Source: Elainellaceae cyanobacterium | Lineage (GTDB): Bacteria; Cyanobacteriota; Cyanobacteriia; CAKZMO01 | Direction: 5' to 3' | Length of the DNA stretch: 64,000 nucleotides | Assembly (NCBI GenBank): GCA_050330955.1 | Contig: JBHJHJ010000003.1 | Span: forward strand, 2,484 to 66,483 | Shown: positions 7,943 to 62,412 of the stretch, in pieces | How positions within the stretch are numbered: position 1 is the stretch's first letter | How the letters are laid out: the number at the start of each line of letters is the position of its first letter | Notes under the pieces: generated by a model | What the model saw: the letters and a program-made list of their open reading frames with translations, nothing else | Database searches by the model: none | Told to the model about the DNA's origin: nothing | Translations under genes and position numbers: made by a program

Positions 7943-10900
7943 ATGCTAGAAACTACAAGTAATCTTCAGTCAACTGGAACAAATATGGCAATGCATAGCT
8001 CAGACATGAACGGTACTCAAACTGTGCTTTGGTCTGATGCTAGCGAGTGGCTGGGCTTTACACCCAAAGATGGAGACGACGTTACGATTCCAACGGGGCT
8101 AAAGGTAATCCTTGATCAAGACACACCAGAGCTTGGAACACTCGCAATAAATGGTATTTTAGAGTTTGATCAAAAAGACCTTAAATTGACGGCTGACAAC
8201 GTGCTCGTTTTTGGTGAAATGGCAGCGGGCAGTGAAGAAAACCCGCACACTCACAAAACAGAAATCGTTCTCACAGGTAAATCGACCGATCCAGACGTAG
8301 TACTGGCCGATTGGATGGGTGAAGGCCATGGCATGCACGACAGCATGGACGGTGGTGAACACGCTAACCACATGACCAGTCCCATCAATAACAAGGCAGT
8401 TATTGTTGCCCCTGGCGGTAAGCTAAATTTGCACGGCGCTGAGGTAGATAGCTGGACTCAGCTGGATTCTACTGCGAATGCTGGCGATACGTCGATTACT
8501 CTTGCCGAAATCCCCGCAGGTTGGAACGTGGGAGATGCGATCGCCATTGCCCCAACTGATTTCAGCGTCTTCGAAGTTGAAGAACGGACTATCGCAAAAA
8601 TTGAGGGCTCTACTGTATTCTTTGAAGAGCCTCTAGAGTATCGTCACTATGGTGAGCAACAAGATTTAGGAAACGGCAAAGTGCTTGACATGCGGGCAGA
8701 GGTAACAAACCTCACCCGAAACATCAGCATCACTGGCTCTGACGAAGGCGAAAGTCAAATTCTAGACACTCAAAGCGAGCATCCAGACTACTATGCCCGC
8801 GCTGGCTATGGCGGCCATACAGTGTATTTAACAGGCGCAGAGGTAAAGATTGATGGTGTTGAATTCAACGGTCTAGGAAATTCAGGGGAATTAGGCAATT
8901 ACCCTGTACACTTCCATCACACAGGCGATGCCAGTGGCTCCTATGTCAAAAACTCATCGGTTCACCATACATTCCAGCGTGGCTTAGTCGTTCATCGGGC
9001 AGACAACCTACTGATTGAAGGCAATACGATCTTCGAAACGATGAGCCACAGCTACTACATTGAAGACGGGGTAGAAACGGGCAATCGATTTGTCGATAAT
9101 TTAGCCATGATGCCGCGTATGACGGCTGAGGCTTTTCGGATTGACAGCGAAAAGAAATCCCCAGAGCGCCCGACGGGCTTTTGGATTACTAACCAAACTA
9201 ATGCTTTTGAGGGGAATCACGCCGTAGGCATTCGAGGGGGCCAAGGCTTCTGGTTTAACGATCCCGACAAAGTTTCGGGCACAGGATTAGCAAGGAAAAA
9301 AGATACGCCGCTGCTTCAGTTTGAGGGAAACACAGCTCATACAATCAATTTCGACCGAGTTGAAGGCTTGGGCTATCCTCCTAAGTGGACAGGAATTGCA
9401 CTTGATATCGGTAAATCGTTCGATAATCATCCAGATAGTGCACCCATCAAAGACTTCACTGCCTGGAAAATCGGAAACATGGGAATTACGATTGGCCACG
9501 GAGATGAAGTAGATATCGAGAATCCGATAATCGCAGAAACGAGGGTATTTCTTCACACCAAGGACGGCGATCCTCTAAAGATTGTCGAGCCAACTTTTGT
9601 CGCCGAAACAGAAAATACTGTTGAGGGACGTGACATTCGCAGTATATTTCCCAATCACCCTAAGCCGGTCATGGTGGAAGCTGCACGACCCACTGAATTG
9701 GTTGACGCTACCATCATCGGCGCAGATCAACTGGTTGAGTCTTCATCGAGACCCAAGCATGAGGGTAATCTAACTGTCACGCTTGCTGAGAGTAATGGCA
9801 CCTCAGAGGAAACCGTAGAAGAGAGCGATACGGCTGAGCCTGCTGACGATGCGGCTGAAAGTCCACAGGATGCCACTTCACTCGATCTCGATAACGAGGA
9901 TATGGCTGCGGACAATGGCGGCGAGATGCAACCCGAGGAGGATTTTGCGTCAGAGATACCCAATTTAGAAACATCAAGCCCCGAAATGCCGTCTTCAGAA
10001 TCCGATAATCCAACAGGAGAAAATGGTTTGATGAAATTTTATCTTATCAATGCTGAGACAAATCAACTCATTAAACCGCTAACTTCGGGCGAGAGTGTTG
10101 ACCCAAATGCGATCGCAGCAAAAGAATTTTCTATCGTTGCAGAGCCCGACGCCGGTGTCTTTAACCAAGTCGGGAGCATCAAATTTTTCCTTAACGGTAA
10201 GGCGGTCAAAACGGAAAATACGCCTCCATATGCCCTGTTCGGCGATAGGAGTGGAGACTTTCATGGAGAGGCGTTCGAAGATGGCGCTTTTACTCTTGAA
10301 GTAGAAGCCTACAGTGGTCCAGACGGGACTGGTGATAAGCTTGTTGCTGCTGAGTTAACTTACGATGTAGCTGTAGGCACACCAGATACTACCGCACCAG
10401 ATTCAGGTAACACGGCGGTAGACACTGACGGCAGTGACCAACCTACTGAAAATCCTGAGCCAGAGGCGCCCAACACTGACGGCGATGCGGTTACAGACGA
10501 AAGCGCTGAGCCGACAGAGGGCGATGTGGATGGCAGCGTGGATATGCCCACCCAGACTGACGGTGAAGCAGGTGGTGCAACCGACGGCGCTGACGATTCG
10601 CCTACTGATGGTTCGCCTACTTCCGAGGTACCTGCTGAACCAGATACCTCAGGGTCAGAATCTGGTGGCGGTTTGAAGCTTTACCTGGTAGATGCCGGCA
10701 CAGATGAAATCATTGAAGAGCTAACCTCTGGCAAGTCCATCGACGCCGATACCACTGGTGCAGACGAGTTTTCCATCATTGCCGTCCCAGACAGCAGCCA
10801 GGTTGAGAGCGTAAAATTCTTCCTCAATGGTCAGGAAGTTAGGACTGAGAATACCCCTCCCTATGCGCTTTTTGGAGATACCGACGGAAACTTCCGTGGG

Positions 10901-13360
10901 GAGCTACTCGAAGATGGCGCCTTTACCGTTGCGGCAGAGGCTTACAGCGGACAAAATGCCACAGGTGAGAAGCTAAGTGAAGTTGAGCTAAGTTATGAAG
11001 TGAGCGGAGCAGCAGCCCCAACCAGCTCTGCCCCGATCGCTGAAACGCCTACAGAAGGCGGCGGCACTCCGACCACTCCAGAAGATGGCATCGACACTGG
11101 GTCTGGCGATCTAGGCGCAGACCCCACCCCGCCCACGACAAACCCCGACGCGCTGGTCAGTCAGTTTGACCACATCGTCTCGCACTTTGATGGCAACAAT
11201 AGAGACACTGACGACATTGCTGCGCTGCCCATCGCGGCTGCCTTAACCAACGCCAGTGGGTTGCAGGATAAGTCAACCTTCTTCTACGGCAACAACATTG
11301 GTGAGCCGAATATCGAGAGACAGGTTGAGGACATGCGCGCCAGCGCGGCGTTTGCCGAGAAGCTGGGGATCAAAACCCACGACTACCAATCTGGATTGAA
11401 TCAAACCACCGATGAGCTGGTGAAAATCTTCAACTCCGGGCAGAAGGTCCTTGTTTTGGAAGGGGGCCGCATGGAAATGACCTATCGGGCCTTCGAGAAG
11501 ACCGATCCAGACAAGATTAAGAACATCACGCTGCTCTCCCACTCCACCAACAACGAAAACTACACCAGAAATGGCAGCCGGACCTGGAGCGATTTGAAGG
11601 CCGACTTCCCGGAGGCCACGTTCATCGATATCGAGAATCAGAATGGGACAAACGATAGAAATGGCTTTAACAGCTCCAAGTGGAACTGGTTGGACAGCAC
11701 CAGTGACCCACTGCTTCAAGAGCTACGAGAGCACATGCTGGAGGCAGGCCGTAAGTACAATGAAGACAAATTCAACGACCCCTCTGATGCGGGTATGCAC
11801 TTCTTCGCCATCACTGGCAATGAGAATGGCGATCCGCTTGACGCAAAAGCTTTCTTAGAGGCTAACCCACCGTCCTTCACTTCCTCCCCACAATCTACAC
11901 CTGTATCTACGCCCGAACCTAGCCCCGAACCCGTACCAGTGCCGACATCCACTGACACAAGCTCAGATTCACTCGTCTTCATGGCTGAAAATGGTCAAGT
12001 GGTTATCGAGGCTGAGAACACCGAGCTGCAGGGCCACTGGACACCCAGAATGGTCGACGGGGAAGACACGGTACTGTGGGATCCGGCTTACAGTAAGGCG
12101 GCACGGGGTGAAGCTGGAGAGACGCTCTCCTACTCGTTTGTCACTGACGAGGCAGGTGATTACAATCTTGCCATGCGCTTCGGACGAGTCAAAGACGCCA
12201 TGAGCGATCGCGACCTACTGGAAAACGGCCAAGAGCGTACTGACACGGGCAACGATTCGTACATCTCACTGATCAACGCAGAGACAGGGGAAGTGATTCA
12301 GGACCAGGTCAAGGCATCGACTTACCTAGGCAGGTCTGACGAGGAGCTCAAGTGGGGAACCACCATTTCTGTCAATCACCAGAAATCGCCAGCGACGTTC
12401 AAGCTGGATGCGAACACCGAGTATCGCCTAGAGGTTACTGGCCGCTCGGATGGCTATGCCCTAGACCGAATTACCCTCAGCACTGATGGATTCCTCACTG
12501 ATGCAAACGTCCCTCAGTCGAGTACTCAGGTTGGTGCGAACGACACTGCTGTGCTGTCGTCCGGCCCGGCTAGTGCATCACCTGCTTTGTCCACTGTTGA
12601 GTCAGTCTCTCCTGAGTTCTCTGATTCGAACAGCGATTTCGCTGCAAGCGAACTCTCGCAGGAGGTACTAGAGCTTACCAACGCGTTCCGGGCCAAGAAT
12701 GGTCTTGCTCCCCTATCGCTCAATCAAGACCTCACCGAAGCGGCCCAAGACCATGTGCAAGATATGGCCGAGGGAGATTTCTTCAGCCATACCGGCCTGG
12801 ATGAGTCCACCATCGTTGACCGGGTTCAGGAAGCCGGATACATGCCTCAAACTGTGGGTGAGAACATTGCTGCGGGACAAATCACGGCAGAAGAGGTTGT
12901 GCAGGCCTGGATTGACAGCCCTGGCCACCGGGCTAATCTACTCAACGACCAGTTCACTGAGATTGGCATTGGCTACGCGTTCCTAGAGAACGACACGGGC
13001 AGCGTCAACTACAACCACTACTGGGGACAGGCCTTTGGGCAGAGTAGCGAGGCGAGTGACTTTGGCGCAGTACCTCAGAGCAGCGGCGATTTTGTCCGCG
13101 CCATGGCTGAGGCTGGGTTCAGCGGCGGCATGGGCTCGATGGGTGATGCTACTGGTGGTGGACAGACCTCAACCTTTGAGAGCAGCTATGGTCTAGCAAA
13201 TCTTGAGAGTGCAAGCGAACTTCAGGGTGCTGAGCTGTTCAGCGTCTCTGAAGGCATCGGTAACCAGACCGAAACGCATCAAGATGAACTGACGGCAGCG
13301 CATATCTGTGGAACCATGGCGGCATTCCCCATGCCTGAGGTAGACAGCCTGGCTGCCTAA
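7943..13360 (+). CDS. Giant (1805 aa) multidomain extracellular-type protein: G8 domain, parallel beta-helix, acidic linkers, 2 tandem repeat domains, CBM-like domain, C-terminal CAP (SCP/PR-1, YkwD-like) domain
   Basis: Single uninterrupted ORF. N-terminal G8-like pattern (W..W..P..GDDVTIP..LKVILD..LGTL.INGILEF). PbH1-like repeats (NSSVHHTFQRGLVVHRADNLLIEGNTIFET). Two ~110-aa repeats (..KFFLNG..VKTENTPPYALFGD..). CAP signature at the C-terminus (GHRANLL..; YWGQAFG). No N-terminal signal peptide is seen. GC is visibly lower than in the flanking genes. Confidence 0.8.
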   Translation: MLETTSNLQSTGTNMAMHSSDMNGTQTVLWSDASEWLGFTPKDGDDVTIPTGLKVILDQDTPELGTLAINGILEFDQKDLKLTADNVLVFGEMAAGSEENPHTHKTEIVLTGKSTDPDVVLADWMGEGHGMHDSMDGGEHANHMTSPINNKAVIVAPGGKLNLHGAEVDSWTQLDSTANAGDTSITLAEIPAGWNVGDAIAIAPTDFSVFEVEERTIAKIEGSTVFFEEPLEYRHYGEQQDLGNGKVLDMRAEVTNLTRNISITGSDEGESQILDTQSEHPDYYARAGYGGHTVYLTGAEVKIDGVEFNGLGNSGELGNYPVHFHHTGDASGSYVKNSSVHHTFQRGLVVHRADNLLIEGNTIFETMSHSYYIEDGVETGNRFVDNLAMMPRMTAEAFRIDSEKKSPERPTGFWITNQTNAFEGNHAVGIRGGQGFWFNDPDKVSGTGLARKKDTPLLQFEGNTAHTINFDRVEGLGYPPKWTGIALDIGKSFDNHPDSAPIKDFTAWKIGNMGITIGHGDEVDIENPIIAETRVFLHTKDGDPLKIVEPTFVAETENTVEGRDIRSIFPNHPKPVMVEAARPTELVDATIIGADQLVESSSRPKHEGNLTVTLAESNGTSEETVEESDTAEPADDAAESPQDATSLDLDNEDMAADNGGEMQPEEDFASEIPNLETSSPEMPSSESDNPTGENGLMKFYLINAETNQLIKPLTSGESVDPNAIAAKEFSIVAEPDAGVFNQVGSIKFFLNGKAVKTENTPPYALFGDRSGDFHGEAFEDGAFTLEVEAYSGPDGTGDKLVAAELTYDVAVGTPDTTAPDSGNTAVDTDGSDQPTENPEPEAPNTDGDAVTDESAEPTEGDVDGSVDMPTQTDGEAGGATDGADDSPTDGSPTSEVPAEPDTSGSESGGGLKLYLVDAGTDEIIEELTSGKSIDADTTGADEFSIIAVPDSSQVESVKFFLNGQEVRTENTPPYALFGDTDGNFRGELLEDGAFTVAAEAYSGQNATGEKLSEVELSYEVSGAAAPTSSAPIAETPTEGGGTPTTPEDGIDTGSGDLGADPTPPTTNPDALVSQFDHIVSHFDGNNRDTDDIAALPIAAALTNASGLQDKSTFFYGNNIGEPNIERQVEDMRASAAFAEKLGIKTHDYQSGLNQTTDELVKIFNSGQKVLVLEGGRMEMTYRAFEKTDPDKIKNITLLSHSTNNENYTRNGSRTWSDLKADFPEATFIDIENQNGTNDRNGFNSSKWNWLDSTSDPLLQELREHMLEAGRKYNEDKFNDPSDAGMHFFAITGNENGDPLDAKAFLEANPPSFTSSPQSTPVSTPEPSPEPVPVPTSTDTSSDSLVFMAENGQVVIEAENTELQGHWTPRMVDGEDTVLWDPAYSKAARGEAGETLSYSFVTDEAGDYNLAMRFGRVKDAMSDRDLLENGQERTDTGNDSYISLINAETGEVIQDQVKASTYLGRSDEELKWGTTISVNHQKSPATFKLDANTEYRLEVTGRSDGYALDRITLSTDGFLTDANVPQSSTQVGANDTAVLSSGPASASPALSTVESVSPEFSDSNSDFAASELSQEVLELTNAFRAKNGLAPLSLNQDLTEAAQDHVQDMAEGDFFSHTGLDESTIVDRVQEAGYMPQTVGENIAAGQITAEEVVQAWIDSPGHRANLLNDQFTEIGIGYAFLENDTGSVNYNHYWGQAFGQSSEASDFGAVPQSSGDFVRAMAEAGFSGGMGSMGDATGGGQTSTFESSYGLANLESASELQGAELFSVSEGIGNQTETHQDELTAAHICGTMAAFPMPEVDSLAA

Positions 13361-13424
13361 TTCAAGAGCCTGAGGAAGGTGCTTCCTTGTACTAAAAGGC
13401 GATCGCCTTCTGATTTTTGACAGC

Positions 13425-13460
13425 GTGAGCCCCCCTCTAGCGGATTAGAGGGGGGCTCAC
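13425..13460. promoter_or_regulatory. Perfect 15-bp-stem hairpin between the giant gene and phnI
   Basis: GTGAGCCCCCCTCTA gcggat TAGAGGGGGGCTCAC. A TTGACA hexamer lies just upstream at about 13414. It could be a terminator for the giant gene and/or a regulatory structure for the phn-like operon. Confidence 0.4.
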
Positions 13461-13542
13461 GTCGTAAAGTAGTAGTCATCCCGTGACATCTCAAATGCGA
13501 TGACACAATAGACATACATCCCCAACACCCTCCCGCCAACCC

Positions 13543-14706
13543 ATGCCCTACGTAGCCGTCAAAGGTGGCGATCGCGCCATACAAAACGCTGAGGCTCTGC
13601 TCAAGGCCCGCCGCCGCGGGGATACTAGCGTACCCGAGCTATCCCTAAAACAAATTAAGCAGCAGATGCACCTGGCCATAAATCGGGTCATGGCCGAGGG
13701 CAGCCTCTACGACCCGGACTTAGCGGCCCTGGCTATCAAGCAATCCTGGGGCGATTTAGTGGAAGCCGCTTTCCTCCTGCGGGCCTACCGCACCACCCTG
13801 CCGCGCCTCTACTACAGCCAGTCGCTAGACACCAGCCAAATGCACCTACAGCGGCGCATCTCAGCAATATTTAAAGACGCCCCCGGCGGCCAGATGCTAG
13901 GCCCTACCTTCGACTATGTGCATCGCCTATTGGACTTCAAGCTAGCGGCGGAAGGAAATGCTGCTGTGCCGCCCAGAACAGGCACCGCCTCAAACGGGGC
14001 TACCCCCCGCGTCGCCGATATCCTGCGGCAAGAGGACCTGATTCAGCCCGCCGCAGCGCCGCAGGAGTCAACGCCCTTCGACCTCACCCGCCATTCTCTC
14101 ACCACCCCTACCCGCCGAGACGCGCGGCTGCAAAACCTAGCCCGAGCCGACGAGGGCTTCTTGCTGGGGCTGGCCTACTCCACCCAGCGGGGCTACGGCA
14201 AAAACCATCCCTTCGCTGGGGAGATTCGCGTAGGAGAAGTGGAGGTGGTGCTCTGCCCCGAGGAGCTGGGGTTTGAGGTGGCGATCGCCGACATCACAGT
14301 AACCGAGGTGCAGATGGTGAACCAATTTACGGGCAACAAGGATACCCCGCCCCAGTTCACCCAGGGCTACGGCCTCACCTTTGGCTACACCGCGCGCAAG
14401 GCCATGGCTATGGCGCTAGTGGACCGGGCGCTGCAGGCTAAAGACCTGGGAGAAGCGATAGATGGTCCCGCCCAGGACGAGGAGTTTGTGCTCTACCACT
14501 CCGACAATGTAGAGGCCCAAGGTTTTGTACAGCACCTGAAGCTGCCCCACTACATCGATTTTCAGGCGGAGCTGAACGTGGTGCGCAAGATGCGGGCGGA
14601 CCACAACACCCAAAGTACCGGTGCCGTTCCGAGTAACGGCGATGCCCAAAGCAACAACGAGCTGGCAAAAGCGGCTCCCTACGACGGCGTGGAGTTCTTC
14701 GTGTGA
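13543..14706 (+). CDS. phnI: Carbon-phosphorus lyase complex subunit PhnI
   Basis: Near-colinear match to E. coli PhnI (MPYVAVKGGDRAIQNAEALL..RRRGDTSVPELS..; ..GEIRVGEVEVVLCPEELGFEV..; MAMALVDRALQA..AQDEEFVLYHSDNVEAQGFVQHLKLPHYIDFQAEL). Confidence 0.9.
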   Translation: MPYVAVKGGDRAIQNAEALLKARRRGDTSVPELSLKQIKQQMHLAINRVMAEGSLYDPDLAALAIKQSWGDLVEAAFLLRAYRTTLPRLYYSQSLDTSQMHLQRRISAIFKDAPGGQMLGPTFDYVHRLLDFKLAAEGNAAVPPRTGTASNGATPRVADILRQEDLIQPAAAPQESTPFDLTRHSLTTPTRRDARLQNLARADEGFLLGLAYSTQRGYGKNHPFAGEIRVGEVEVVLCPEELGFEVAIADITVTEVQMVNQFTGNKDTPPQFTQGYGLTFGYTARKAMAMALVDRALQAKDLGEAIDGPAQDEEFVLYHSDNVEAQGFVQHLKLPHYIDFQAELNVVRKMRADHNTQSTGAVPSNGDAQSNNELAKAAPYDGVEFFV

Positions 14707-15608
14707 TGCCTGATCCAACCCCCAAAGTACGGGCGAATGGCCATTCGCCCCGACCGGCTACCGCTACTACTGAACCCGGCTTCAACTTCGCCTACCTCGA
14801 CGAGCAAACCAAGCGCTCCATCCGCCGCGCCTTGCTCAAAGCCATTGCCATTCCCGGCCACCAGATCCCCTTCGGCTCTCGGGAGATGCCCATGCCCTAC
14901 GGCTGGGGCACCGGCGGCATCCAGGTCACCGCCTCAGTGATTGGCCAGACCGACATCTTCAAAGTGATCGACCAGGGGGCTGACGACACCACCAACGCCG
15001 TCAACATCCGCCGCTTCTTCCAAAAGGTATGCGGCGTCGAGACCACCGAACGCACCGAAGAGGCCACGCTGCTCCAAACCCGCCACCGCATCCCCGAAAC
15101 GCCGCTACGGGAAGGTCAAACGGTGGTGTACCAGGTGCCCATGCCCGAGCCCCTGTTCTTCATCGAGCCCTCTCGCACCGAGGCCAGCAAGATGCACGCC
15201 CTAGAAGAATACGGCCCCGTCTACGTGCGGCTCTACGAAGACATCACCCAGTACGGCCACATCGCCATGGCCTACGACTATCCCGTGGTGGTGCACGATC
15301 GCTACCTGATGAAGCCCAGCCCCATTCCCCGCTTCGACAACCCCAAGATGCATATGAGTCCGGCACTGCAGCTGTTCGGAGCGGGGCGGGAAAAGCGCAT
15401 CTACGCGGTGCCGCCCTACACCTCAGTGAAGAGTCTGGATTTTGAGGACTACCCGTTCACGGTAGAGCGCTGGGATAAGCCCTGCGCCATTTGTGGCTCG
15501 ACGGAGAGCTACCTAGATGAAGTGGTGACCGACGACCAGGGCGGTCGCATGTGGATCTGCTCGGATACGGACTACTGCAGCCAGCGACAGTCGAACGCTC
15601 CAGATTAG
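14706..15608 (+). CDS. phnJ: C-P lyase PhnJ (alpha-D-ribose-1-methylphosphonate-5-phosphate C-P lyase, radical SAM-like 4-Cys)
   Basis: FNFAYLDEQTKRSIRRALLKAIAIPGHQIPFGSREMPMPYGWGTGGIQ.., and the C-terminal Cys cluster CAICGSTESYLDEVV..ICSDTDYC. The ATG overlaps the phnI stop (TGATG). Confidence 0.9.
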   Translation: MPDPTPKVRANGHSPRPATATTEPGFNFAYLDEQTKRSIRRALLKAIAIPGHQIPFGSREMPMPYGWGTGGIQVTASVIGQTDIFKVIDQGADDTTNAVNIRRFFQKVCGVETTERTEEATLLQTRHRIPETPLREGQTVVYQVPMPEPLFFIEPSRTEASKMHALEEYGPVYVRLYEDITQYGHIAMAYDYPVVVHDRYLMKPSPIPRFDNPKMHMSPALQLFGAGREKRIYAVPPYTSVKSLDFEDYPFTVERWDKPCAICGSTESYLDEVVTDDQGGRMWICSDTDYCSQRQSNAPD

Positions 15609-15663
15609 GCGATACTTGAGAGAGCTTATTTGGCTAGCCCCTCCTGTAAATTTGTCGGATGCA

Positions 15664-16344
15664 ATGAGTCCACTCCTGCGAGCCCATCGCCTCCACAAGC
15701 GATTTATTCTGCACAACCACGGTACCGAAATCCCGGTGCTGGCAGGTACCAGCCTCACCGTAGAGGCGGGAGAATGCATTGCGCTGCAGGGCCCCTCAGG
15801 CTCCGGTAAATCTACCTTTATGCGATCGCTCTACGGCAACTATCGCGTTGACAGCGGCTCAGTGTGGGTCAGGCATGAAGATAAGTGGGTTGACATTCCC
15901 CAATTGCCTCCCCACGAACTGATCGCGGTGCGGCGGAGATCTTTGGGCTACGTCAGTCAGTTTCTGCGGGTGATTCCTCGGGTGCCGGCGCTGGACGTGG
16001 CCGCTGAACCGCTTGTCGCTTGGGGCGCCCCGCTGGAGGAGGCCCGTGAGCGAGTCGCCTGCCTGTTCGCCCAGCTCAATCTGCCGCGGCGGCTGTGGAT
16101 GCTGTCCCCCACCACCTTTTCCGGTGGGGAGAAGCAGCGGGTCAACATTGCCCGAGCTCTCGCGGTGCCCTACCCGGTGCTGCTGCTAGATGAACCCACT
16201 TCCGCCCTAGATGACGCCAACCGAGAGGTGGTCATTCGCCTGATGGAAGCCCGCCGCGCCCAGGGCTCTGCCTTGGTGGGCATTTTTCACGATCAGGCGG
16301 TGCGCGATCGCGTCTGTAACCGAACCTTAACGTTTGAAGGTTAG
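15664..16344 (+). CDS. phnL: C-P lyase pathway ABC-type ATPase PhnL
   Basis: Walker A GPSGSGKST, then WVDIP, then VSQFLRVIPRV, then signature FSGGEKQRVNIARAL, then LLLDEPTSALD, then GIFHD. This is the PhnL pattern, not PhnK. Start taken at MSPLLRAHRLHKRF. Confidence 0.85.
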   Translation: MSPLLRAHRLHKRFILHNHGTEIPVLAGTSLTVEAGECIALQGPSGSGKSTFMRSLYGNYRVDSGSVWVRHEDKWVDIPQLPPHELIAVRRRSLGYVSQFLRVIPRVPALDVAAEPLVAWGAPLEEARERVACLFAQLNLPRRLWMLSPTTFSGGEKQRVNIARALAVPYPVLLLDEPTSALDDANREVVIRLMEARRAQGSALVGIFHDQAVRDRVCNRTLTFEG

Positions 16345-16351
16345 AGTGATC

Positions 16352-17509
16352 ATGATCACAGCTCCAGCGACTATGACAGAACAGGTTCTGACCAACTATC
16401 GTCTGCAGCTCCCCGACCAAGAGGTGTTGGGTAGCCTGGTGGTGCGCGATGGCCGCATCGCCGACATTCAGCCCGGCGCAGTTTCCCAGGGGCAAGACGG
16501 GGGCGGGGATTACCTGCTGCCAGGCTTTGTGGAGCTGCACACCGACAATCTAGAGCAGTGTATGTCGCCTCGGCCCAGCGTGATGTGGCCGATGGACATG
16601 GCTGTGGTGCACCACGACCGGGAGCTGGCGGGGGCAGGCATCACAACGGTGTGTGACGCGATCGCCATCGGGGACGTGCTGCCCAACTCGGTGCGTATGA
16701 CCCAGTTCGATCCTATGATCGACGCCCTCAGCGGGGCGCAGCAGGCCGGACGCTTGGCGGTGGATCACCGCCTGCACCTGCGGTGTGAGCTGGGCTATGA
16801 AAACACCCACGACATTGTTGAGCGCTACGCCACCCACCCCCTGCTGACCCTGATGTCCCTGATGGACCACACGCCGGGGCAGCGCCAGTTTGCCAAAGTG
16901 GAGAAATACAAGGCGTATTATGTGGGTAAACACGGGGTCAGCCCCGAAGAAATGGACGACTTTATCCAAAAGCGCATCGAAGATCAGCGGCTTCACGCCC
17001 AGACCAACCGGCAGAAGCTGGCGCGGCTTGCTCGCACCCACGACATTGCTCTTGCGAGCCACGACGACGCCACGGTGGACCACGTGCAAGAGGCCATCGA
17101 TGACGGCGCGGCGATCGCCGAGTTTCCGACGACGCTGGACGCAGCTAAATCCGCCCACCGCCACGGCCTACAGATTTTGATGGGGGCTCCCAACTTAGTG
17201 CTGGGGGGCTCCCAATCGGGGAACGTCTCAGCGATGACGCTGATCGAGCACGGGCTAGTGGACTTGATTTCCTCAGACTATGTGCCCCAGAGCCTGCTGC
17301 AGGCGGTTTTTGTCATTGCCCAGCGTGGGGTGCTGCCTCTGCATGACGCGGTGAAGCTGGTGACCCTCAACCCCGCGAAAGCGATTGAGCTGGATGGCGA
17401 TCGCGGCAGCCTCGCGGTTGGCAAGCGGGCAGATTTTATCACCGTGCACCACGACGGCACCGTGCCCAGACTCACTAGCGTCAGCCGACAGGGAAGGCGT
17501 ATTGCCTGA
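16352..17509 (+). CDS. phnM: PhnM (ribose-1-methylphosphonate-5-triphosphate diphosphatase, amidohydrolase fold)
   Basis: LLPGFVELHTDNLE, ITTVCDAIAIGDV, HRLHLRCE, LMDHTPGQRQF, ALASHDDAT, EFPTT, and MGAPNLVLGGSQSGNVSA all align with E. coli PhnM. It is translationally coupled to phnL. Confidence 0.85.
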   Translation: MITAPATMTEQVLTNYRLQLPDQEVLGSLVVRDGRIADIQPGAVSQGQDGGGDYLLPGFVELHTDNLEQCMSPRPSVMWPMDMAVVHHDRELAGAGITTVCDAIAIGDVLPNSVRMTQFDPMIDALSGAQQAGRLAVDHRLHLRCELGYENTHDIVERYATHPLLTLMSLMDHTPGQRQFAKVEKYKAYYVGKHGVSPEEMDDFIQKRIEDQRLHAQTNRQKLARLARTHDIALASHDDATVDHVQEAIDDGAAIAEFPTTLDAAKSAHRHGLQILMGAPNLVLGGSQSGNVSAMTLIEHGLVDLISSDYVPQSLLQAVFVIAQRGVLPLHDAVKLVTLNPAKAIELDGDRGSLAVGKRADFITVHHDGTVPRLTSVSRQGRRIA

Positions 17510-17522
17510 CTCTAAACCAGTT

Positions 17523-18116
17523 TTGAGCTCAGACCCATCTCCATCAGGCTTCTCTGGCGCCGACGGCGATACGCTAATACCGCTGATTCTTTACGCCTGC
17601 CCCACTGGCCCGCTGGCCCAGCAGCTTGAGGTGTACTTTGAGCGCAGTCGGGTCCGCTATGGCCCCAATAAGGCCCATGCCTATATGCCTCACTGCACCC
17701 TAACCGGCTTTTTCCACGACGGGGCAGTCACCATTTCGGCCTATCTGCGCGCGATCGATGCGGCTCTAAACCAGCTGGAGCCCCCGCCGCGCCCCGTAGC
17801 CCGCGTGAGCGCGATGGCCTTCCATGCAGATTGGCACGGGCTTGTGGTCGAAGCGCCCTGGCTCAAGCGGCTAACGGCTCAGTTTGCTGAACTGGCGCCC
17901 TCGCCGCCCAATGAGGCACTGCGGCTTAAAGACTGGCTTCACGTCAGCCTGGCCTACGGGTTTGACCCAGCCCAGAATAATGACCTGCGCGAGCTGGCTC
18001 AGGCCCTAGTTGACCCTGAGACCCCCGCCGGCTGGGAGCTTCGGTTCTACCAGCGTCAGTCCGCTTGGATATGCCAGCAGAGCTGGACCCTCGAAGATAC
18101 GTTTCAACAGCAGTAA
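17523..18116 (+). CDS. 2H-family (LigT/CPDase-like) cyclic phosphodiesterase
   Basis: Two H-x-T/S-x motifs at the expected spacing (MPHCTLTGFF ... LHVSLAYGF). The ORF-track start at 17385 overlaps phnM in another frame. The true start is probably the TTG at 17523 or a nearby alternative, so it remains uncertain. Confidence 0.5.
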   Translation: MSSDPSPSGFSGADGDTLIPLILYACPTGPLAQQLEVYFERSRVRYGPNKAHAYMPHCTLTGFFHDGAVTISAYLRAIDAALNQLEPPPRPVARVSAMAFHADWHGLVVEAPWLKRLTAQFAELAPSPPNEALRLKDWLHVSLAYGFDPAQNNDLRELAQALVDPETPAGWELRFYQRQSAWICQQSWTLEDTFQQQ

Positions 18117-18139: not shown

Positions 18140-18718
18140 ATGATTACGATCGATACCCTCATGATCACCCTCCGCGACCGGGGCGGCAGCCAATACGGCA
18201 GTGAGTCGGTGACCTACCTGGAGCATGCGTTGCAATGTGCCGCCCTCGCTCAGCAGAACAGTGAGTCGGACGCTCTGGTCGCAGCTTGCCTGCTCCACGA
18301 CATTGGACATATGCTGCACGAGCTTGGGGAAGACGTCGCACAGCAGGGGATCAATGACCGCCACGAACATCTGGCGCCGCGCTATCTCGCTTCCCTGTTT
18401 GGCCCAGCGGTCACCGAGCCGATTCGGCTTCACGTTCAGGCCAAGCAATATCTGTGCGCCATCAACAAGCGGTATTGGGACTCCCTCTCGCCAGCATCAC
18501 AAACGAGCCTAGAGCTGCAGGGGGGCATATTCTCCAAGGCCGACGCGAAGCGATTTATCTATCAGCGCTACGCCCCCGACGCCGTGAAGCTCCGTCTTTG
18601 GGATGATCAGGCTAAGGTCAGCGGACACAAAACCCCTGGTTTGGATCACTTTTTACCTGTCTTGCAGGCCTGTTACCTGTGCGATCGCGCCCATCAAAGT
18701 GCTCCTCTGGCGCTCTAG
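18140..18718 (+). CDS. HD-domain protein of the phosphonate-operon-associated clade (PhnZ-like, Phn_HD)
   Basis: YLEHALQCAALAQ..ACLLHDIGH HD motif in a ~190-aa protein, and its placement directly after phn genes. Start taken at MITIDTLMITL rather than the overlapping upstream start. Confidence 0.6.
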   Translation: MITIDTLMITLRDRGGSQYGSESVTYLEHALQCAALAQQNSESDALVAACLLHDIGHMLHELGEDVAQQGINDRHEHLAPRYLASLFGPAVTEPIRLHVQAKQYLCAINKRYWDSLSPASQTSLELQGGIFSKADAKRFIYQRYAPDAVKLRLWDDQAKVSGHKTPGLDHFLPVLQACYLCDRAHQSAPLAL

Positions 18719-19147: not shown

Positions 19148-19417
19148 GTGATGGTCAGAAATTTATTGCTCTTTCTTCGAAAAAAGCTGATTTACATCCC
19201 AGTATTTGATTCTCAAAATGTAAAATTCACGCGACCGTCTTTACACCTGGGGCAGAAGGTACGAACCCAAACCGGCTATGTCGGCTACATCGTGGGCATT
19301 GATTTTTATCCAGAAGATGAAACGTGGGTCTACGGCCTCCACCCCGGCAGGCGAGCTGACGACGAGCCCGTAGAGCGGGATTTTTGGCTCTCAGCAGAGG
19401 AGCTTGAGCCGTTCTAA
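19148..19417 (+). CDS. Small hypothetical protein (89 aa)
   Basis: ORF in an otherwise AT-richer 700-bp gap. No recognisable motifs. Confidence 0.25.
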   Translation: MMVRNLLLFLRKKLIYIPVFDSQNVKFTRPSLHLGQKVRTQTGYVGYIVGIDFYPEDETWVYGLHPGRRADDEPVERDFWLSAEELEPF

Positions 19418-34221: not shown

Positions 34222-34995
34222 CTAAGTCGCCTGAACCAAGCTGGTGGGATTGAGCGGCTCAGCGGTGAGGTACTGCTGCTTCACCCGCAGCAGCTTGCGG
34301 GCCGCCGCCATCAAATCGTCTTGGATAAACGTGGGCTGGAACCGCGCCAAATAGGCCCGACTGCGGATGCCGCAGGTGAGGGCAATAGTAGAGATGCCCA
34401 GGCGACGCCCCGCTAAAACATCCGCCTCCGTATCCCCCACCATCCAGGCGTGGTTGGGATGGCCGTAGTCTTGGCAATAGTCTTGCCAGCACAGCTTCAG
34501 CAGCTCGGTTTTGTAGTCGGCGCTGTTGCGGTAGGCGGCCCGGTCTTCTGGCGTTCCCAAAATTCGCGTAAACAGGTGGGCCAACCCATGCTCCTGCAGC
34601 AAAGACACTACCTGCTGCTGCGATCGCAGCGTGACCAGCATCAGGTCAATACCCCGCTCGTGCATCAGCGTCAGCCCCTTCCTGGCGTTGGGGTGGAGGC
34701 AGTCGTGGTGCAGCAGGTCGGGGTGGTTGACGATTTCCTCAACCAGATCGAAAAACTGCGCCATCTGGTGAGGTTTGACGCCGGACTGCTGAGCGATGTC
34801 TTTGTCTGGGATGCGGTGCTGCTTGAGATGCCAGAACCGGGCCTTGGTCAGCGGCTGAATGGAGGGCTTGTCGAGCTGCTCTAGGACGCGGCGATAGGTG
34901 CTGTAGTAGCGATCGGATACGTCGACGATAGGCCCGTCAAAATCGCAGAATACGGCAAATCTAGGGCATTGATTGGGTGTCACGTTCGCCCTCAA
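34222..34995 (-). CDS. HAD-superfamily hydrolase
   Basis: Motif I FAVFCDFDGPIVD near the N-terminus. Later motifs LVTLRSQQ and MVGDTEADVLAG are also present. Confidence 0.7.
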   Translation of the reverse strand: MRANVTPNQCPRFAVFCDFDGPIVDVSDRYYSTYRRVLEQLDKPSIQPLTKARFWHLKQHRIPDKDIAQQSGVKPHQMAQFFDLVEEIVNHPDLLHHDCLHPNARKGLTLMHERGIDLMLVTLRSQQQVVSLLQEHGLAHLFTRILGTPEDRAAYRNSADYKTELLKLCWQDYCQDYGHPNHAWMVGDTEADVLAGRRLGISTIALTCGIRSRAYLARFQPTFIQDDLMAAARKLLRVKQQYLTAEPLNPTSLVQAT

Positions 34996-56776: not shown

Positions 56777-58213
56777 TCAGAAGCGATACGTCAGCGCTAG
56801 CGCCCAGTCGTCCTCGGACTGCGTCAAGCTGATCTGCTGAATGAATTCTCGAAAGTAGAACCGACGCTCTGTTTCTGAGAGATCAAGCCAGAACTGGGGA
56901 AGTGAAACCGTCTGCGTGATAGACAGTAAGCTAGCGGGGGGAAGCTGCCCGACTTTGGCCTGTAGGGCCGCGATCTCGGTCTGCAGCCGGTAAGCCCGGA
57001 GGGTGCTCGTCTGCTCATCTAGGATACCTTGGTCTTTGAGCGGACCGAGCTGCGCTAAGATATGCTGCTTCTCAGCAATCTGATGGGTTAAGTTCATCTT
57101 GATGGCCTCCACGGGGGGTGGGGCAGATTGGCCAACCGTGTGGGCCAACTCGCTACAAATCCGCGCGATGGTTCGCTCTAAGACCTCAGCATAGGGTAGG
57201 GACACGCAGCGATTCCCCTCGTTAGATTGGGGGCCATAGGGGCAGTGACTTGGTCGCAGATAGAGATAAGTTTTAATCCGCTGACGGCCTCGCTTGCAGG
57301 TGGTCTGGCCCACGGTCATCGGGGTCTGGCAACGACCGCAGACCACTAGCCCCGCCAGCGATCGCGGCGCGGTGCTAGTCCGGGGCCTGAACTGCCGATT
57401 ACGACGCATAACCCGGTCAATTTGCGCGGCTTCGTCCCTCGAAAGGATGGGGGCATGGGTATTGGGAATAACATCGCCATTGTGATAGGCCAAATCACCG
57501 CGATAAACGGGGCTAGAGAGCCAGCGATTGCCGGTCGACACTGAAATTGTTTTGCGGTGTACTTCAGCGAGGTGACGTACCGCTCCCCGCAAGGAGCCGT
57601 ACAGTAAGAAGTGGTCAAAAAAGGCCCTGACGACTGTAGCAGCGCTGCGATCGAGGCTGTAGCGGTCGGGGCCGCGCCTGTAGCCATAAGGGGCTTTTCC
57701 CGGAGGGGGCTGTCCCTGGATGCGGGTTTTGGCGTGTCCCTGCTGAATGCGCTGCCGCCGCTGCTGCTGCTCTATCGCTTGGGCAAGCTGCAGCCCTGAG
57801 GAGAGTGCCTCAGCATCTACTGGACTGCCTAAAGCGGGAGTATCTAGAGCGGGAGGATTTAGAGCGGAAGGATTTAGAGCGGGAGGATTTAGAGCGGAAC
57901 TGTCCAGAGCGGAACTGTCCAGAGCGGAATCTACAACGGCTTCTGCGGCAACCCGGACTGGAATATTAAGCTGAGAGAATTCTGCTAGGCGATCGCTCAC
58001 CGCCTGTAGAGATTCACCCAAATCAGCAAGCTGGTAGACCAGGACAACGTCTACCGCTTGGGGATTTTGGCGACAGTCTTGGACCATTTGCTGGAGCTGA
58101 TGGCGGTCCTGAATGTCCTGATAGACCCGGTCAGCCGACTGCCGCCACTGGTTGAGCGGATCAGTACTCGACTCAACGGCGGCATAGGGGCGGTAGTGGT
58201 AGGCAAAGATCAT
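56777..58213 (-). CDS. Large serine-recombinase family homolog with apparently degenerate catalytic N-domain and a pentapeptide-repeat insertion
   Basis: Recombinase domain plus zinc beta-ribbon (GLVVCGRCQTPMTV..CKRGRQ..YLYLRPSHCPYGP) and a C-terminal coiled coil. The N-terminal YAAVESSTD / LADLGE sits where resolvases have YARVSTxxQ / LDRLGR. Confidence 0.6.
   Translation of the reverse strand: MIFAYHYRPYAAVESSTDPLNQWRQSADRVYQDIQDRHQLQQMVQDCRQNPQAVDVVLVYQLADLGESLQAVSDRLAEFSQLNIPVRVAAEAVVDSALDSSALDSSALNPPALNPSALNPPALDTPALGSPVDAEALSSGLQLAQAIEQQQRRQRIQQGHAKTRIQGQPPPGKAPYGYRRGPDRYSLDRSAATVVRAFFDHFLLYGSLRGAVRHLAEVHRKTISVSTGNRWLSSPVYRGDLAYHNGDVIPNTHAPILSRDEAAQIDRVMRRNRQFRPRTSTAPRSLAGLVVCGRCQTPMTVGQTTCKRGRQRIKTYLYLRPSHCPYGPQSNEGNRCVSLPYAEVLERTIARICSELAHTVGQSAPPPVEAIKMNLTHQIAEKQHILAQLGPLKDQGILDEQTSTLRAYRLQTEIAALQAKVGQLPPASLLSITQTVSLPQFWLDLSETERRFYFREFIQQISLTQSEDDWALALTYRF
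57832..57935. repeat. About 7 copies of a 15-bp tandem repeat (AGCGGRA-N8) inside the recombinase-like CDS
   Basis: agcgggaggatttag / agcggaaggatttag / agcggaactgtccag ..., encoding (S)ALDSS / ALNPP / ALNPS pentapeptide repeats in frame. Confidence 0.65.
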
Positions 58214-59933: not shown

Positions 59934-61316
59934 CTAGCGGCCAACGCCCACGTACGAGAATCCAGCAGCCTCAACCGCCTTGCGGTCTAGGAAGTTGCGG
60001 CCATCGATCATGATGGGTGAATTCATCACCTTGGCGAGGTCTTCGAAGTCGATGTCCTTGAACTGTTTCCAGTCGGTTACCAGCACCAGAGCGTCGCAGC
60101 TATCCGCCAACAGCCTGATATCTGTTTCAACGCTGACGTTGGATAGACCATGGCGCATCCCCGTTTGGGAAACCAGCGGGTCATAGGCCTTGACCTTTGC
60201 GCCGAGGCGAGTGAGCTGCTCCACCAGCGTTAGAGCCGGTGCGTCGCGCATGTCGTCGGTATCGGGCTTAAAGGTCAAACCTAGAAGACCAACGGTCTTA
60301 CCCTTCAAGATTTTGAGCACCTGCTGCAGCTTTTCAACCACAATTAGCCGCTGCCGCTTGTTTACGTCCACGGCGGCCTTCAGCAGTTGGGCGTCGTAGC
60401 CATAGTCGTCAGCGGTATGGATTAGGGCCGCTACATCTTTCGGGAAGCAGGAACCGCCCCAGCCCAGACCGGCCTGCAGGAACTTCTTACCGATGCGGGA
60501 ATCAAGGCCGATGCCCTGAGCCACTTGGGTCACGTCGGCGCCGACGCGATCGCAGATATTGGCGACTTCGTTGATAAAGCTGATCTTGGTCGCCAAGAAC
60601 GTGTTGGCGGCGTACTTGACCATCTCAGCCGAGCTGAGGTCAGTCGTGACCACAGGCACCGTGGGCATGGAGGAGTCTTCAGCAAACTGGCGGGACACGA
60701 TGGGCGCGTAGAGGTCTTTCATCATGGCAATGGCGCGATCGCTGTTGCCGCCTAGCACGATCCGATCGGGGTTAAACGTGTCGTAGATTGCAGACCCTTC
60801 CCGCAGAAACTCGGGGTTACTGACCACGTCAAAATCGACCTCGGGGAGAGCGGGCTCGCCGCCACCGCCGGCAGGAACCAGCTCCTTCTGACGTTCAGCG
60901 ACGCCGTCCATCACAATCATGCGGACCCAGTCGCCTGAACCGATAGGAACGGTCGACTTGTTAACAATGACCTTGTAGCCGCCGTTTAGGTGAGACCCGA
61001 TACCGCGGGCTACCGCCTCAACGTAGCGCGTGTCGCTCTCGCCCGTAGGTAGCGGTGGAGTTCCTACTGCAATAAATAAAATCTCACCGTGACCGACGCC
61101 AGCACCCAAGTCAGTGGTGAACTGAATACGCCCGCCCTCAATAGCCTCATGCATCAGCTCTGATAAACCAGGCTCAAAAATGGGCGATTGTCCAGACTGC
61201 ATCAGCCGAACTTTTTCTTCGTTGTTATCAACGCAAATGACGTCGTGGCCGATTCGAGCAAGGCAGACGCCCGTTACAAGACCAACGTATCCAGTACCAA
61301 TAACACAAACTCGCAT
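59934..61316 (-). CDS. ugd: UDP-glucose 6-dehydrogenase (nucleotide-sugar dehydrogenase family)
   Basis: MRVCVIGTGYVGLVTGVCLA..GHDVICVD; catalytic Cys region GWGGSCFPKD. Confidence 0.85.
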   Translation of the reverse strand: MRVCVIGTGYVGLVTGVCLARIGHDVICVDNNEEKVRLMQSGQSPIFEPGLSELMHEAIEGGRIQFTTDLGAGVGHGEILFIAVGTPPLPTGESDTRYVEAVARGIGSHLNGGYKVIVNKSTVPIGSGDWVRMIVMDGVAERQKELVPAGGGGEPALPEVDFDVVSNPEFLREGSAIYDTFNPDRIVLGGNSDRAIAMMKDLYAPIVSRQFAEDSSMPTVPVVTTDLSSAEMVKYAANTFLATKISFINEVANICDRVGADVTQVAQGIGLDSRIGKKFLQAGLGWGGSCFPKDVAALIHTADDYGYDAQLLKAAVDVNKRQRLIVVEKLQQVLKILKGKTVGLLGLTFKPDTDDMRDAPALTLVEQLTRLGAKVKAYDPLVSQTGMRHGLSNVSVETDIRLLADSCDALVLVTDWKQFKDIDFEDLAKVMNSPIMIDGRNFLDRKAVEAAGFSYVGVGR

Positions 61317-61458
61317 AGACTTACTCCTTATATATCCTAGAGGTAGAAAAAATGATACATGCGCACCGAATCAAACTTGATAATGAAGCCATAGCCCCAA
61401 GCAACTCTTCGTTATGCCCTCAAGGCCCTGGATTTTGGCATTATCCCAACGAAGACAG

Positions 61459-62412
61459 CTAAACCTTAACCTGTTCGCAATGGGTCGAATCAATGCGATC
61501 GCGGAAATCGTTGATGGTGTACTTCAATCCCTCAGCCAAAGGGACTGTAGGTGACCAGTTGAGGAACTTTCTCGCTTTGGTGATATCGGGCTGACGACGA
61601 CGAGGATCGTCTTGAGGCAGTGGCTTGTATTGAAGCTCTGCGTCGGGATTTATCATGCCCTGAATCGCCTGGGCGAGTTCTAGAATGGTGTACTCGTCTG
61701 GATTGCCCAAGTTGATTGGACCGATATGGTCGCCATTCATCAGCTTCATCAGACCTTCGACTAGATCTGATACATAGCAGAAGCTGCGGGTTTGAGAGCC
61801 GTCTCCATACACCGTTAAGGGCTGCCCCCTAAGGGCTTGAACCACGAAGTTGCTGACGACTCGGCCATCGTTTTCCAACATGCGCGGTCCATAAGTATTA
61901 AAGATGCGTGCAACCCGAACCTCAACGTCATTCTGACGGTGATAGTCAAATGCCAGGGTCTCAGCAACCCGCTTGCCTTCGTCATAACAGCTCCGTATAC
62001 CGATAGTATTGACGTTGCCCCGATATTCTTCAGGCTGCGGATGAACATCTGGGTCCCCGTAAACCTCAGACGTCGAAGCCAGGAGTAGCCGAGCTTTGAT
62101 GCGCTTGGCCAAGCCCAACATGTTGAGGGTGCCCATCACGTTGGTTTTGATGGTTTTTACAGGGTTGTACTGGTAGTGAACTGGAGACGCTGGGCAGGCC
62201 AGGTGATAGATCTGATCAACCTCTAAGCGAATGGGCTCAGTAATATCGTGGCGGATGAGCTCAAAGAAGGGACTGTCTAGCCATTTGAGAACGTTGGTTT
62301 TGCGGCCAGTGTAAAAGTTGTCAAGGCAAATCACCTCTTCTCCAGCTTCCATAAGCCGGTCAATGAGATGAGAGCCGATGAAACCGGCGCCTCCAGTCAC
62401 AAGGATTCTCAT
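61459..62412 (-). CDS. UDP-glucuronate decarboxylase (UDP-xylose synthase), SDR family
   Basis: [16 protein letters not shown]..; DNFYTGRK.N; YHLACPASP; STSEVYGDP. Adjacent to ugd. Confidence 0.85.

Follow-up and report, generated by a model that had tools for sequence, protein, structure and literature searches.

Introduction

Some cyanobacteria, Trichodesmium and Nodularia among them, release methane when they degrade methylphosphonate. The only cyclic phosphodiester of the C-P lyase pathway is 5-phospho-alpha-D-ribose 1,2-cyclic phosphate (PRcP; PMC3840354, PMC10574752), and cyanobacterial phn clusters have been described as lacking PhnN, PhnO and PhnP (PMC10574752). The phn operon analyzed here, located in a 64-kb stretch of DNA from an Elainellaceae cyanobacterium (referred to as the window), raises the question of which enzyme opens this ring when PhnP is missing. 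An earlier note on the sequence had pointed to a protein of the 2H superfamily encoded directly behind phnM, and we analyzed this gene, its family and its genomic surroundings with this question in mind.

The phn operon of the window

Six genes on the plus strand, in the order phnI, phnJ, phnL, phnM, 2H gene and Phn-HD, form a tight operon with intergenic overlaps or gaps of at most 23 nt (Table 1); the start of phnJ, for example, overlaps phnI by 4 nt. A gene caller has placed the starts of phnL and phnM elsewhere, about 48 nt downstream of 15616 and at 16373, respectively. The PhnJ protein is 72% identical to PhnJ of E. coli and retains G32, C241, C244, C266 and C272, and PhnM is 70% identical to the product of the first of two PhnM-like genes in Phormidium tenue. 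Downstream of Phn-HD follows a convergent gene encoding a response-regulator/PAS/adenylate cyclase protein.

Table 1. Genes of the phn operon and motifs of the 2H protein in the 64-kb window.
Feature	Position	Strand	Evidence
phnI, C-P lyase core subunit	13543..14706	+	Pfam PhnI, 530.8 bits, full length
phnJ, radical-SAM C-P lyase, makes PRcP	14703..15608	+	Pfam PhnJ, 492.5 bits
phnL, ABC ATPase	15616..16344	+	TIGR02324, 322.4 bits (cut-off 256.3)
phnM, RPnTP diphosphatase	16334..17509	+	TIGR02318, 502.8 bits (cut-off 390.55)
2H-superfamily phosphodiesterase gene, candidate PRcP phosphodiesterase	17502..18116	+	motifs, homologues, AF2/Foldseek
2H motif 1, H-C-T-L (His57)	17691..17702	+	read from sequence
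2H motif 2, H-V-S-L (His140)	17940..17951	+	read from sequence
Phn-HD, PhnZ-like HD protein of C-P lyase clusters	18140..18718	+	TIGR03276, 214.7 bits (cut-off 214.6); Pfam HD

To survey the window, tblastn was run for the genes named below and every ORF of at least 150 aa was compared with Pfam. No phnK is found between phnJ and phnL; a cyanobacterial PhnK matched phnL alone with 26% identity, and tblastn detected no phnG, phnH, phnK, second PhnM-like gene or phnCDE in the entire 64 kb. In the same way, tblastn and Pfam found no phnP, phnN, DUF1045 gene, HAD gene of the phn type or transporter in the window. These searches brought up phnI, phnJ, phnL, phnM and the HD gene and no others, and the HAD gene at 34222-34995 is unrelated. 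The description of the operon as phnP-less was borne out, since no PhnP, metallo-beta-lactamase or PHP gene was seen across the 64 kb and E. coli PhnP showed no similarity to the window by tblastn or Pfam. The 2H gene is thus accompanied by phnI, phnJ, phnL and phnM and not by the complete catalytic core phnGHIJKLM. The local cluster is truncated, though these four genes look intact, and the lack of phnG, phnH and phnK makes the function of the pathway in this organism uncertain. A Pho-box pattern had no match upstream of phnI.

Translation start and conserved residues of the 2H gene

The 2H ORF is intact, ends with TAA at 18114-18116 and lies immediately behind phnM (stop codon TGA at 17507-17509) and ahead of Phn-HD, in agreement with the position in a C-P lyase operon assigned to it earlier. 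The encoded protein is 100% identical to ACFB4J_00135 of NCBI, which is annotated as "hypothetical protein". Downstream of the phnM stop there is no ATG, and two TTG codons are candidate starts. TTG 17523 leaves a 13-nt spacer after the phnM stop, yields a protein of 197 aa and is the start that other gene callers chose for the identical protein, and the residue numbering used here is counted from this codon. TTG 17502 gives an 8-nt overlap with the phnM stop and a protein of 204 aa, and a purine-rich AGGGAAGG lies 5 nt upstream. As the two closest orthologues were called from the TTG equivalent to 17502, with proteins beginning MPD, and in view of the upstream AGGGAAGG, we favor TTG 17502, from which the 2H gene would be translationally coupled to phnM. 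The absence of an ATG, the overlap with the end of phnM and the suggested coupling therefore agree with the earlier reading, whereas its start coordinate would have to be moved.

Both H-x-T/S-x motifs that had been ascribed to the protein are present and their histidines are invariant (Table 1). In an alignment of 41 family members H57, H140 and S142 are invariant and T59 is nearly so; 30 columns of this alignment are invariant, including H52, R134, K136 and R174. With 81 sequences, H57, H140 and S142 are still 100% conserved, C58, T59 and L60 reach at least 90%, and 42 positions in total are conserved to at least 90%. L143, A144 and Y145 beside H140 and S142 are invariant in the family alignments as well, and the window protein retains every family-invariant residue.

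Fold and family membership

A search at E<=1e-3 yielded 588 homologues; with few exceptions these come from filamentous cyanobacteria and are standalone proteins of about 180 aa. The AlphaFold2 (AF2) model of the window protein (pLDDT 92.2, pTM 0.85) has the pseudo-twofold, two-lobed alpha+beta fold of 2H enzymes, and the significant Foldseek matches in the PDB are all 2H enzymes, so that the fold postulated in the earlier note is recovered by structure prediction. The best match is the ADP-ribose 1'',2''-cyclic phosphate phosphodiesterase (CPDase) of A. thaliana (1fsi/1jh6, E-value 7.6e-6, TM 0.55-0.61), followed by YjcG, LigT, Usb1, a poxvirus cGAMP PDE and AKAP18. Together, the 588 homologues, the model and the 2H matches go far beyond what a chance pair of motifs would produce.

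Profile matches are weaker. With 21.1 bits, the window protein stays below the gathering score (27) of the 2H-clan model PF13563, and 40 of 41 relatives match this model at E<=1 (best 6.1e-7); further weak Pfam matches of the family are 2_5_RNA_ligase2 and LigT_PEase. NCBIfam gave no match for the window protein, and a search of PDB sequences with the family profile returned a spurious dynactin match alone (E 0.047). Motifs, weak Pfam clan matches and predicted fold support the assignment of the protein to the 2H superfamily, with an enzymatic activity that is predicted.

A profile search of 1.84 billion representative sequences identified 650 relatives, and the non-bacterial ones are animal UBASH3/Sts proteins. 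The family HMM matches these UBA-2H-SH3-His_Phos proteins of 540-890 aa with E-values between 1e-21 and 1e-28 in an alignment that spans the whole domain (profile positions 3-167), and some bacterial members have been named after UBASH3 by JGI. A plasmid collection contained no homologue of the 2H protein. One relative (P0341, 651 aa) carries an N-terminal HD_4 domain of the RelA/SpoT type fused to a 2H domain at residues 467-639; the fusion is reminiscent of the neighboring 2H and HD genes of phn clusters, but the HD subtype differs.

Linkage to phn genes in cyanobacteria and Chloroflexota

A scan with one genome per species found 209 relatives, and 80 of these loci were examined. A PhnM-like gene lies within 10 kb of the 2H homologue at 29 of the 80 loci, which belong to cyanobacteria and Chloroflexota; if the count is confined to loci with 5 kb or more on each side, the proportion is 15 of 38. 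For a cluster of 12 kb and a genome of 6 Mb, less than 1% would be expected by chance. At 18 loci the PhnM-like gene is on the same strand and ends at most 280 nt before the 2H gene, and Phn-HD follows the 2H gene at 11 linked loci. Two further loci outside the 29 have a PhnM relic (L010) and a cut-off HD gene (L016). The relic is a 54-aa piece matching the C-terminus of PhnM with 70% identity (L010, 9747-9908); it immediately precedes a 2H gene that has no other link to phn genes, and it probably represents what is left of a lost phn cluster.

A complete arrangement is found in Phormidium tenue FACHB-886 (L015), where a full cluster comprises phnG, phnH, a GNAT gene, phnI, phnJ, phnK, phnL, phnM, a second PhnM-like gene and the 2H gene, followed by Phn-HD, an HAD gene, a methyltransferase gene and the divergent phnE, phnD, phnC and a GntR regulator gene. 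The order phnM, 2H, HD and cyclase gene of the window is kept in a relative whose 2H protein is 67% identical. Two other Elainellaceae MAGs have less: one retains a phnM and 2H pair and no other phn gene, beside FUR and the adenylate cyclase of the window (L087, 4998-6740), and the other carries an orphan phnJ flanked by genes for a glycosyltransferase and a ROK kinase (L169, 10001-10906). These two loci suggest that the phn cluster is fragmenting or eroding within the Elainellaceae.

Linked loci from Chloroflexota number seven (L013, L026, L030, L034, L044, L047, L069). Compared with the window, identity is only 35-40% for PhnI and PhnM of these loci but about 50% for the 2H proteins, which are as near as the cyanobacterial copies; this indicates that the 2H gene was transferred between the phyla without the core genes. 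This points to a separate recruitment of the 2H gene next to phn genes in cyanobacteria and in Chloroflexota. One Chloroflexales MAG possesses two 2H copies, of which one is linked to phn (L026) and one is not (L075).

About 60% of the family loci are found in unrelated, lineage-specific housekeeping contexts with neighbors such as UDP-glucose dehydrogenase, LepA, leuB, prepilin peptidase and HSP20. We considered whether linked and unlinked members form separate clades and rejected this, as both are intermixed in a neighbor-joining tree. Residues that set linked apart from unlinked members were not found either, as both have the identical 42 conserved positions in the 81 sequences. The high proportion of unlinked loci together with the lack of group-specific residues implies that the family may have a broader substrate range.

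Genes for a UDP-glucose dehydrogenase and a UDP-glucuronate decarboxylase-like epimerase are also present in the window on the minus strand (59934-62412), 42 kb from the 2H gene. These two genes lie immediately upstream of an unlinked 2H gene in six other cyanobacterial genomes (among them L017, L027, L050, L055 and L078), and the site beside them is possibly the ancestral position of the 2H gene.

Distribution relative to PhnP, DUF1045 and PhnN

PhnP, PhnN and DUF1045 were not detectable in the window or at any of the 80 family loci. For a reverse survey, PhnJ served as bait to collect 47 phn clusters, each 12 kb or longer, from metagenomes; these are mostly non-cyanobacterial. PhnP is present in 24 of the 47 clusters and DUF1045 in 15, but never both, and PhnN is present in 39. 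The 2H family occurs in one of the 47 (L093), which has a cyanobacterial-type PhnJ and contains no PhnP, DUF1045 or PhnN. Phn-HD was found alongside DUF1045 in four proteobacterial clusters, which argues that HD is not a PhnP analogue there.

About ten cyanobacterial phn clusters were retrieved via PhnJ or from a plasmid database. None of these has PhnP, DUF1045 or PhnN, Phn-HD is present in seven and a second amidohydrolase in most, and a 2H gene was found within 10 kb only in L093 and L176. With two of about ten clusters the 2H gene is dispensable in cis, and it clearly does not belong to the obligate components of the phn pathway. The co-occurrence survey proposed in the earlier note consequently gave a divided answer: the linkage at 29 of 80 loci and the strict absence of PhnP and DUF1045 from them agree with a replacement of PhnP, whereas the large unlinked fraction and the low frequency in cyanobacterial clusters do not.

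The second PhnM-like amidohydrolase is about 30% identical to PhnM (L015, 8833-9996; also L170, L172-L174, L176 and L083) and is often encoded just ahead of the 2H or HD gene. This amidohydrolase is another candidate for the processing of PRcP or of a different ribosyl phosphonate. Clusters of Nostocales (L083, L172) are reordered to phnI, a FosA-like glyoxalase gene, a PhnM-like gene, HD, phnJ, phnK, phnL and phnM and do not contain a 2H gene; the glyoxalase is a homologue of fosfomycin-resistance-type glutathione transferases (L083, 9731-10153; L172, 7565-7966).

Predicted role in PRcP opening

On balance we think that the 2H protein is probably the enzyme that opens PRcP and thereby a functional analogue of PhnP and of RcsF/DUF1045. 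This role is suggested by the nearest relative in fold, the coupling to phnM, the linkage in two phyla and the mutual exclusion with known or proposed PRcP phosphodiesterases. In the proposed mechanism, a standalone 2H cyclic phosphodiesterase that is co-translated with phnM would hydrolyze the PhnJ product PRcP, yielding a ribose bisphosphate. By analogy with the superfamily, the two histidines of the HxT/S motifs would provide general acid-base catalysis at the cyclic phosphodiester, and the invariant basic residues H52, R134, K136 and R174 may bind the second phosphate; substrate and regiochemistry are predicted on the same grounds. Because phnN never occurs in these clusters and an HAD phosphatase and Phn-HD are often present, we infer that dephosphorylation of the bisphosphate, giving ribose 5-phosphate and Pi, is more probable than its conversion to PRPP.

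A different explanation, which we regard as unlikely but worth weighing, is that the protein is a general phosphodiesterase of the ThpR/LigT or Sts type for 2',3'-cyclic nucleotides or RNA 2',3'-cyclic phosphates, which came to lie beside phn genes because both are used under phosphate stress. It would then act in the metabolism of nucleotides or RNA ends or in the scavenging of phosphorus and leave PRcP to the second PhnM-like amidohydrolase or to Phn-HD, and either of these two, being usual in clusters without a 2H gene, could indeed handle PRcP instead. The weak matches to 2_5_RNA_ligase2 and LigT_PEase, LigT and YjcG among the fold matches, and the nearest non-bacterial relatives, the 2H domains of UBASH3/Sts, which hydrolyze 2',3'-cyclic NADP and RNA>p (PMC10253181), fit such a general activity, as does the fact that most family loci are unlinked to phn and that most cyanobacterial phn clusters do without a 2H gene yet have Phn-HD and a second amidohydrolase. 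However, a general enzyme does not readily account for a 2H gene immediately beside and apparently translationally coupled to a PhnM-like gene at 18 loci, for the recurrence of the linkage in two phyla or for the strict exclusivity with PhnP and DUF1045. Moreover, the coexistence of Phn-HD and DUF1045 in four proteobacterial clusters speaks against HD as the PhnP analogue there, and the top structural match acts on ribose 1,2-cyclic phosphates and not on RNA ends.

That the 2H gene is merely part of a decaying, non-functional phn remnant in this organism and has no current role is very improbable: although phnG, phnH, phnK, the second amidohydrolase gene and phnCDE are missing from the 64 kb, related Elainellaceae MAGs are reduced to phnM plus 2H or to an orphan phnJ, and a 54-aa PhnM relic precedes a 2H gene in L010, the six genes of the window are all intact and tightly packed, the catalytic Cys and Gly residues of PhnJ and the invariant residues of the 2H protein are all kept, the absent phn genes may be located on other contigs of the MAG, and the synteny from phnM to the cyclase gene is preserved in the relative with the 67% identical 2H protein.

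Returning to PRcP opening as the preferred role, we extend it to the whole family only tentatively. It is conceivable, if somewhat doubtful, that in the cyanobacterial and Chloroflexota pathways in general the missing enzyme for PRcP opening belongs to the UBASH3-type 2H family, acting in cis or in trans, and that HAD and HD proteins together with it define an exit to ribose 5-phosphate and Pi that is independent of PhnP and PhnN; by extension, ribose 1,2-cyclic phosphates would become a candidate class of natural substrates for the phosphodiesterase domain of animal Sts/UBASH3 proteins.

Comparison with known phosphodiesterases

That PhnP may be replaced by a 2H protein has been suggested before. 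According to the account given in PMC10574752, Huang 2005 and Podzelinska 2009 regarded the 2H protein RcsF/DUF1045 as a PhnP analogue in phn operons without phnP, and hydrolysis of PRcP by RcsF/DUF1045 has been proposed (Martinez 2013, PMC3840354). It is encoded in 78 of 223 operons, almost all of them from alpha- and beta-proteobacteria (Villarreal-Chiu 2012, PMC3266647). The family described here resembles RcsF/DUF1045 (PF06299, TIGR03223) in being a 2H protein with two HxT/S motifs, in its occurrence in C-P lyase clusters without phnP, in the predicted opening of PRcP and in the mutual exclusion with PhnP, which for DUF1045 is seen in our survey of 47 clusters. In contrast to DUF1045, which adjoins phnN in 86% of cases (PMC3266647), it is found without phnN in the window and at all 80 loci, and in cyanobacteria and Chloroflexota instead of proteobacteria. 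Membership in DUF1045 itself was considered and rejected, as neither Pfam nor NCBIfam gave a match for the window protein, no DUF1045 match was found among the 41 relatives, the hhalign comparison with Paracoccus WP_011750995 reached a probability of 0.2% (E 0.25) and BLASTP was non-significant. In the earlier note the gene had been presented as a further non-orthologous replacement of PhnP; this holds insofar as the 2H family is a different one, but the principle of a 2H protein in place of PhnP had been put forward between 2005 and 2013. What appears to be new is therefore a second 2H lineage, with no detectable sequence relationship to DUF1045, in the candidate role of PhnP.

With PhnP of E. 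coli the protein would share the hydrolysis of PRcP and the position downstream of phnM, whereas PhnP has a metallo-beta-lactamase instead of a 2H fold, uses metal-dependent chemistry and pairs with PhnN for PRPP formation. A further solution is PhnPP, the cyclic phosphate dihydrolase of Eggerthella lenta from the PHP family, which was reportedly described by Ghodge et al. in 2013 as converting PRcP to ribose 5-phosphate and Pi without PhnP and PhnN. It is said to have a PHP fold with a trinuclear metal site and to carry out both hydrolyses in one enzyme. The route suggested here is likewise a non-orthologous disposal of PRcP without PhnP and PhnN, but with a 2H in place of a PHP fold.

The closest structural relatives are the plant and yeast CPDases (1fsi, 1jh6), whose substrate carries the ribose 1,2-cyclic phosphate group of PRcP. 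They differ from the window protein in sequence (11-14% identity, TM about 0.55-0.6) and in context, which is tRNA splicing for CPDase, and the CPDase-specific Pfam model is not among the 16 families reported for the relatives. In sequence, the nearest relative outside bacteria is the 2H domain of animal UBASH3A/B (Sts-2/Sts-1, TULA). The bacterial protein is a single-domain one (197-204 aa in the window, about 180 aa in the family) and does not have the UBA-2H-SH3-histidine phosphatase architecture, and the UBASH3/Sts domain has no phosphonate link, unlike the bacterial family. For the 2H domain of Sts-1 an activity on 2',3'-cyclic nucleotides has been described, and its natural substrate is not known (PMC10218301). 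Judged by its profile matches, the family represents the bacterial counterpart of the Sts/UBASH3 2H domain.

In the literature that we covered, which is incomplete, no publication tied this 2H family to phosphonate catabolism; genes behind phnM in Nodularia are referred to as "hypothetical proteins in phn cluster" (PMC3610870). A conserved and easily expressed protein of about 180 aa offers a directly testable candidate for the PRcP step in clusters without PhnN, PhnO and PhnP, and the annotation of hundreds of "hypothetical" proteins would improve. If the prediction is correct, the 2H fold has been recruited to this pathway at least twice, by this family and by RcsF/DUF1045, both predicted PRcP openers, and the Sts/UBASH3 2H domain would be linked to a bacterial metabolic context.

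Further features of the window

In the region 7943-17509, phnI begins 183 nt past the gene of an unrelated secreted-type protein of 1805 aa with G8, CEMIP beta-helix and CAP domains. The stretch between both genes contains a perfect inverted repeat, with arms of 15 bp around a 6-nt loop, at 13425-13460, GTGAGCCCCCCTCTA GCGGAT TAGAGGGGGGCTCAC, which is not followed by a T-run; a separate terminator-like hairpin is located at 13396-13409. A large serine recombinase gene with Resolvase, Recombinase and Zn_ribbon_recom domains (56777-58213, minus strand) adjoins PhzF-like and endonuclease V genes and may lie at the border of an integrated element. The gap from Phn-HD to the convergent cyclase gene holds a small ORF of 89 aa without a Pfam match (19148-19417), which is also called as a gene in Logan contig L001 and has a counterpart of similar size at the equivalent place in L087.
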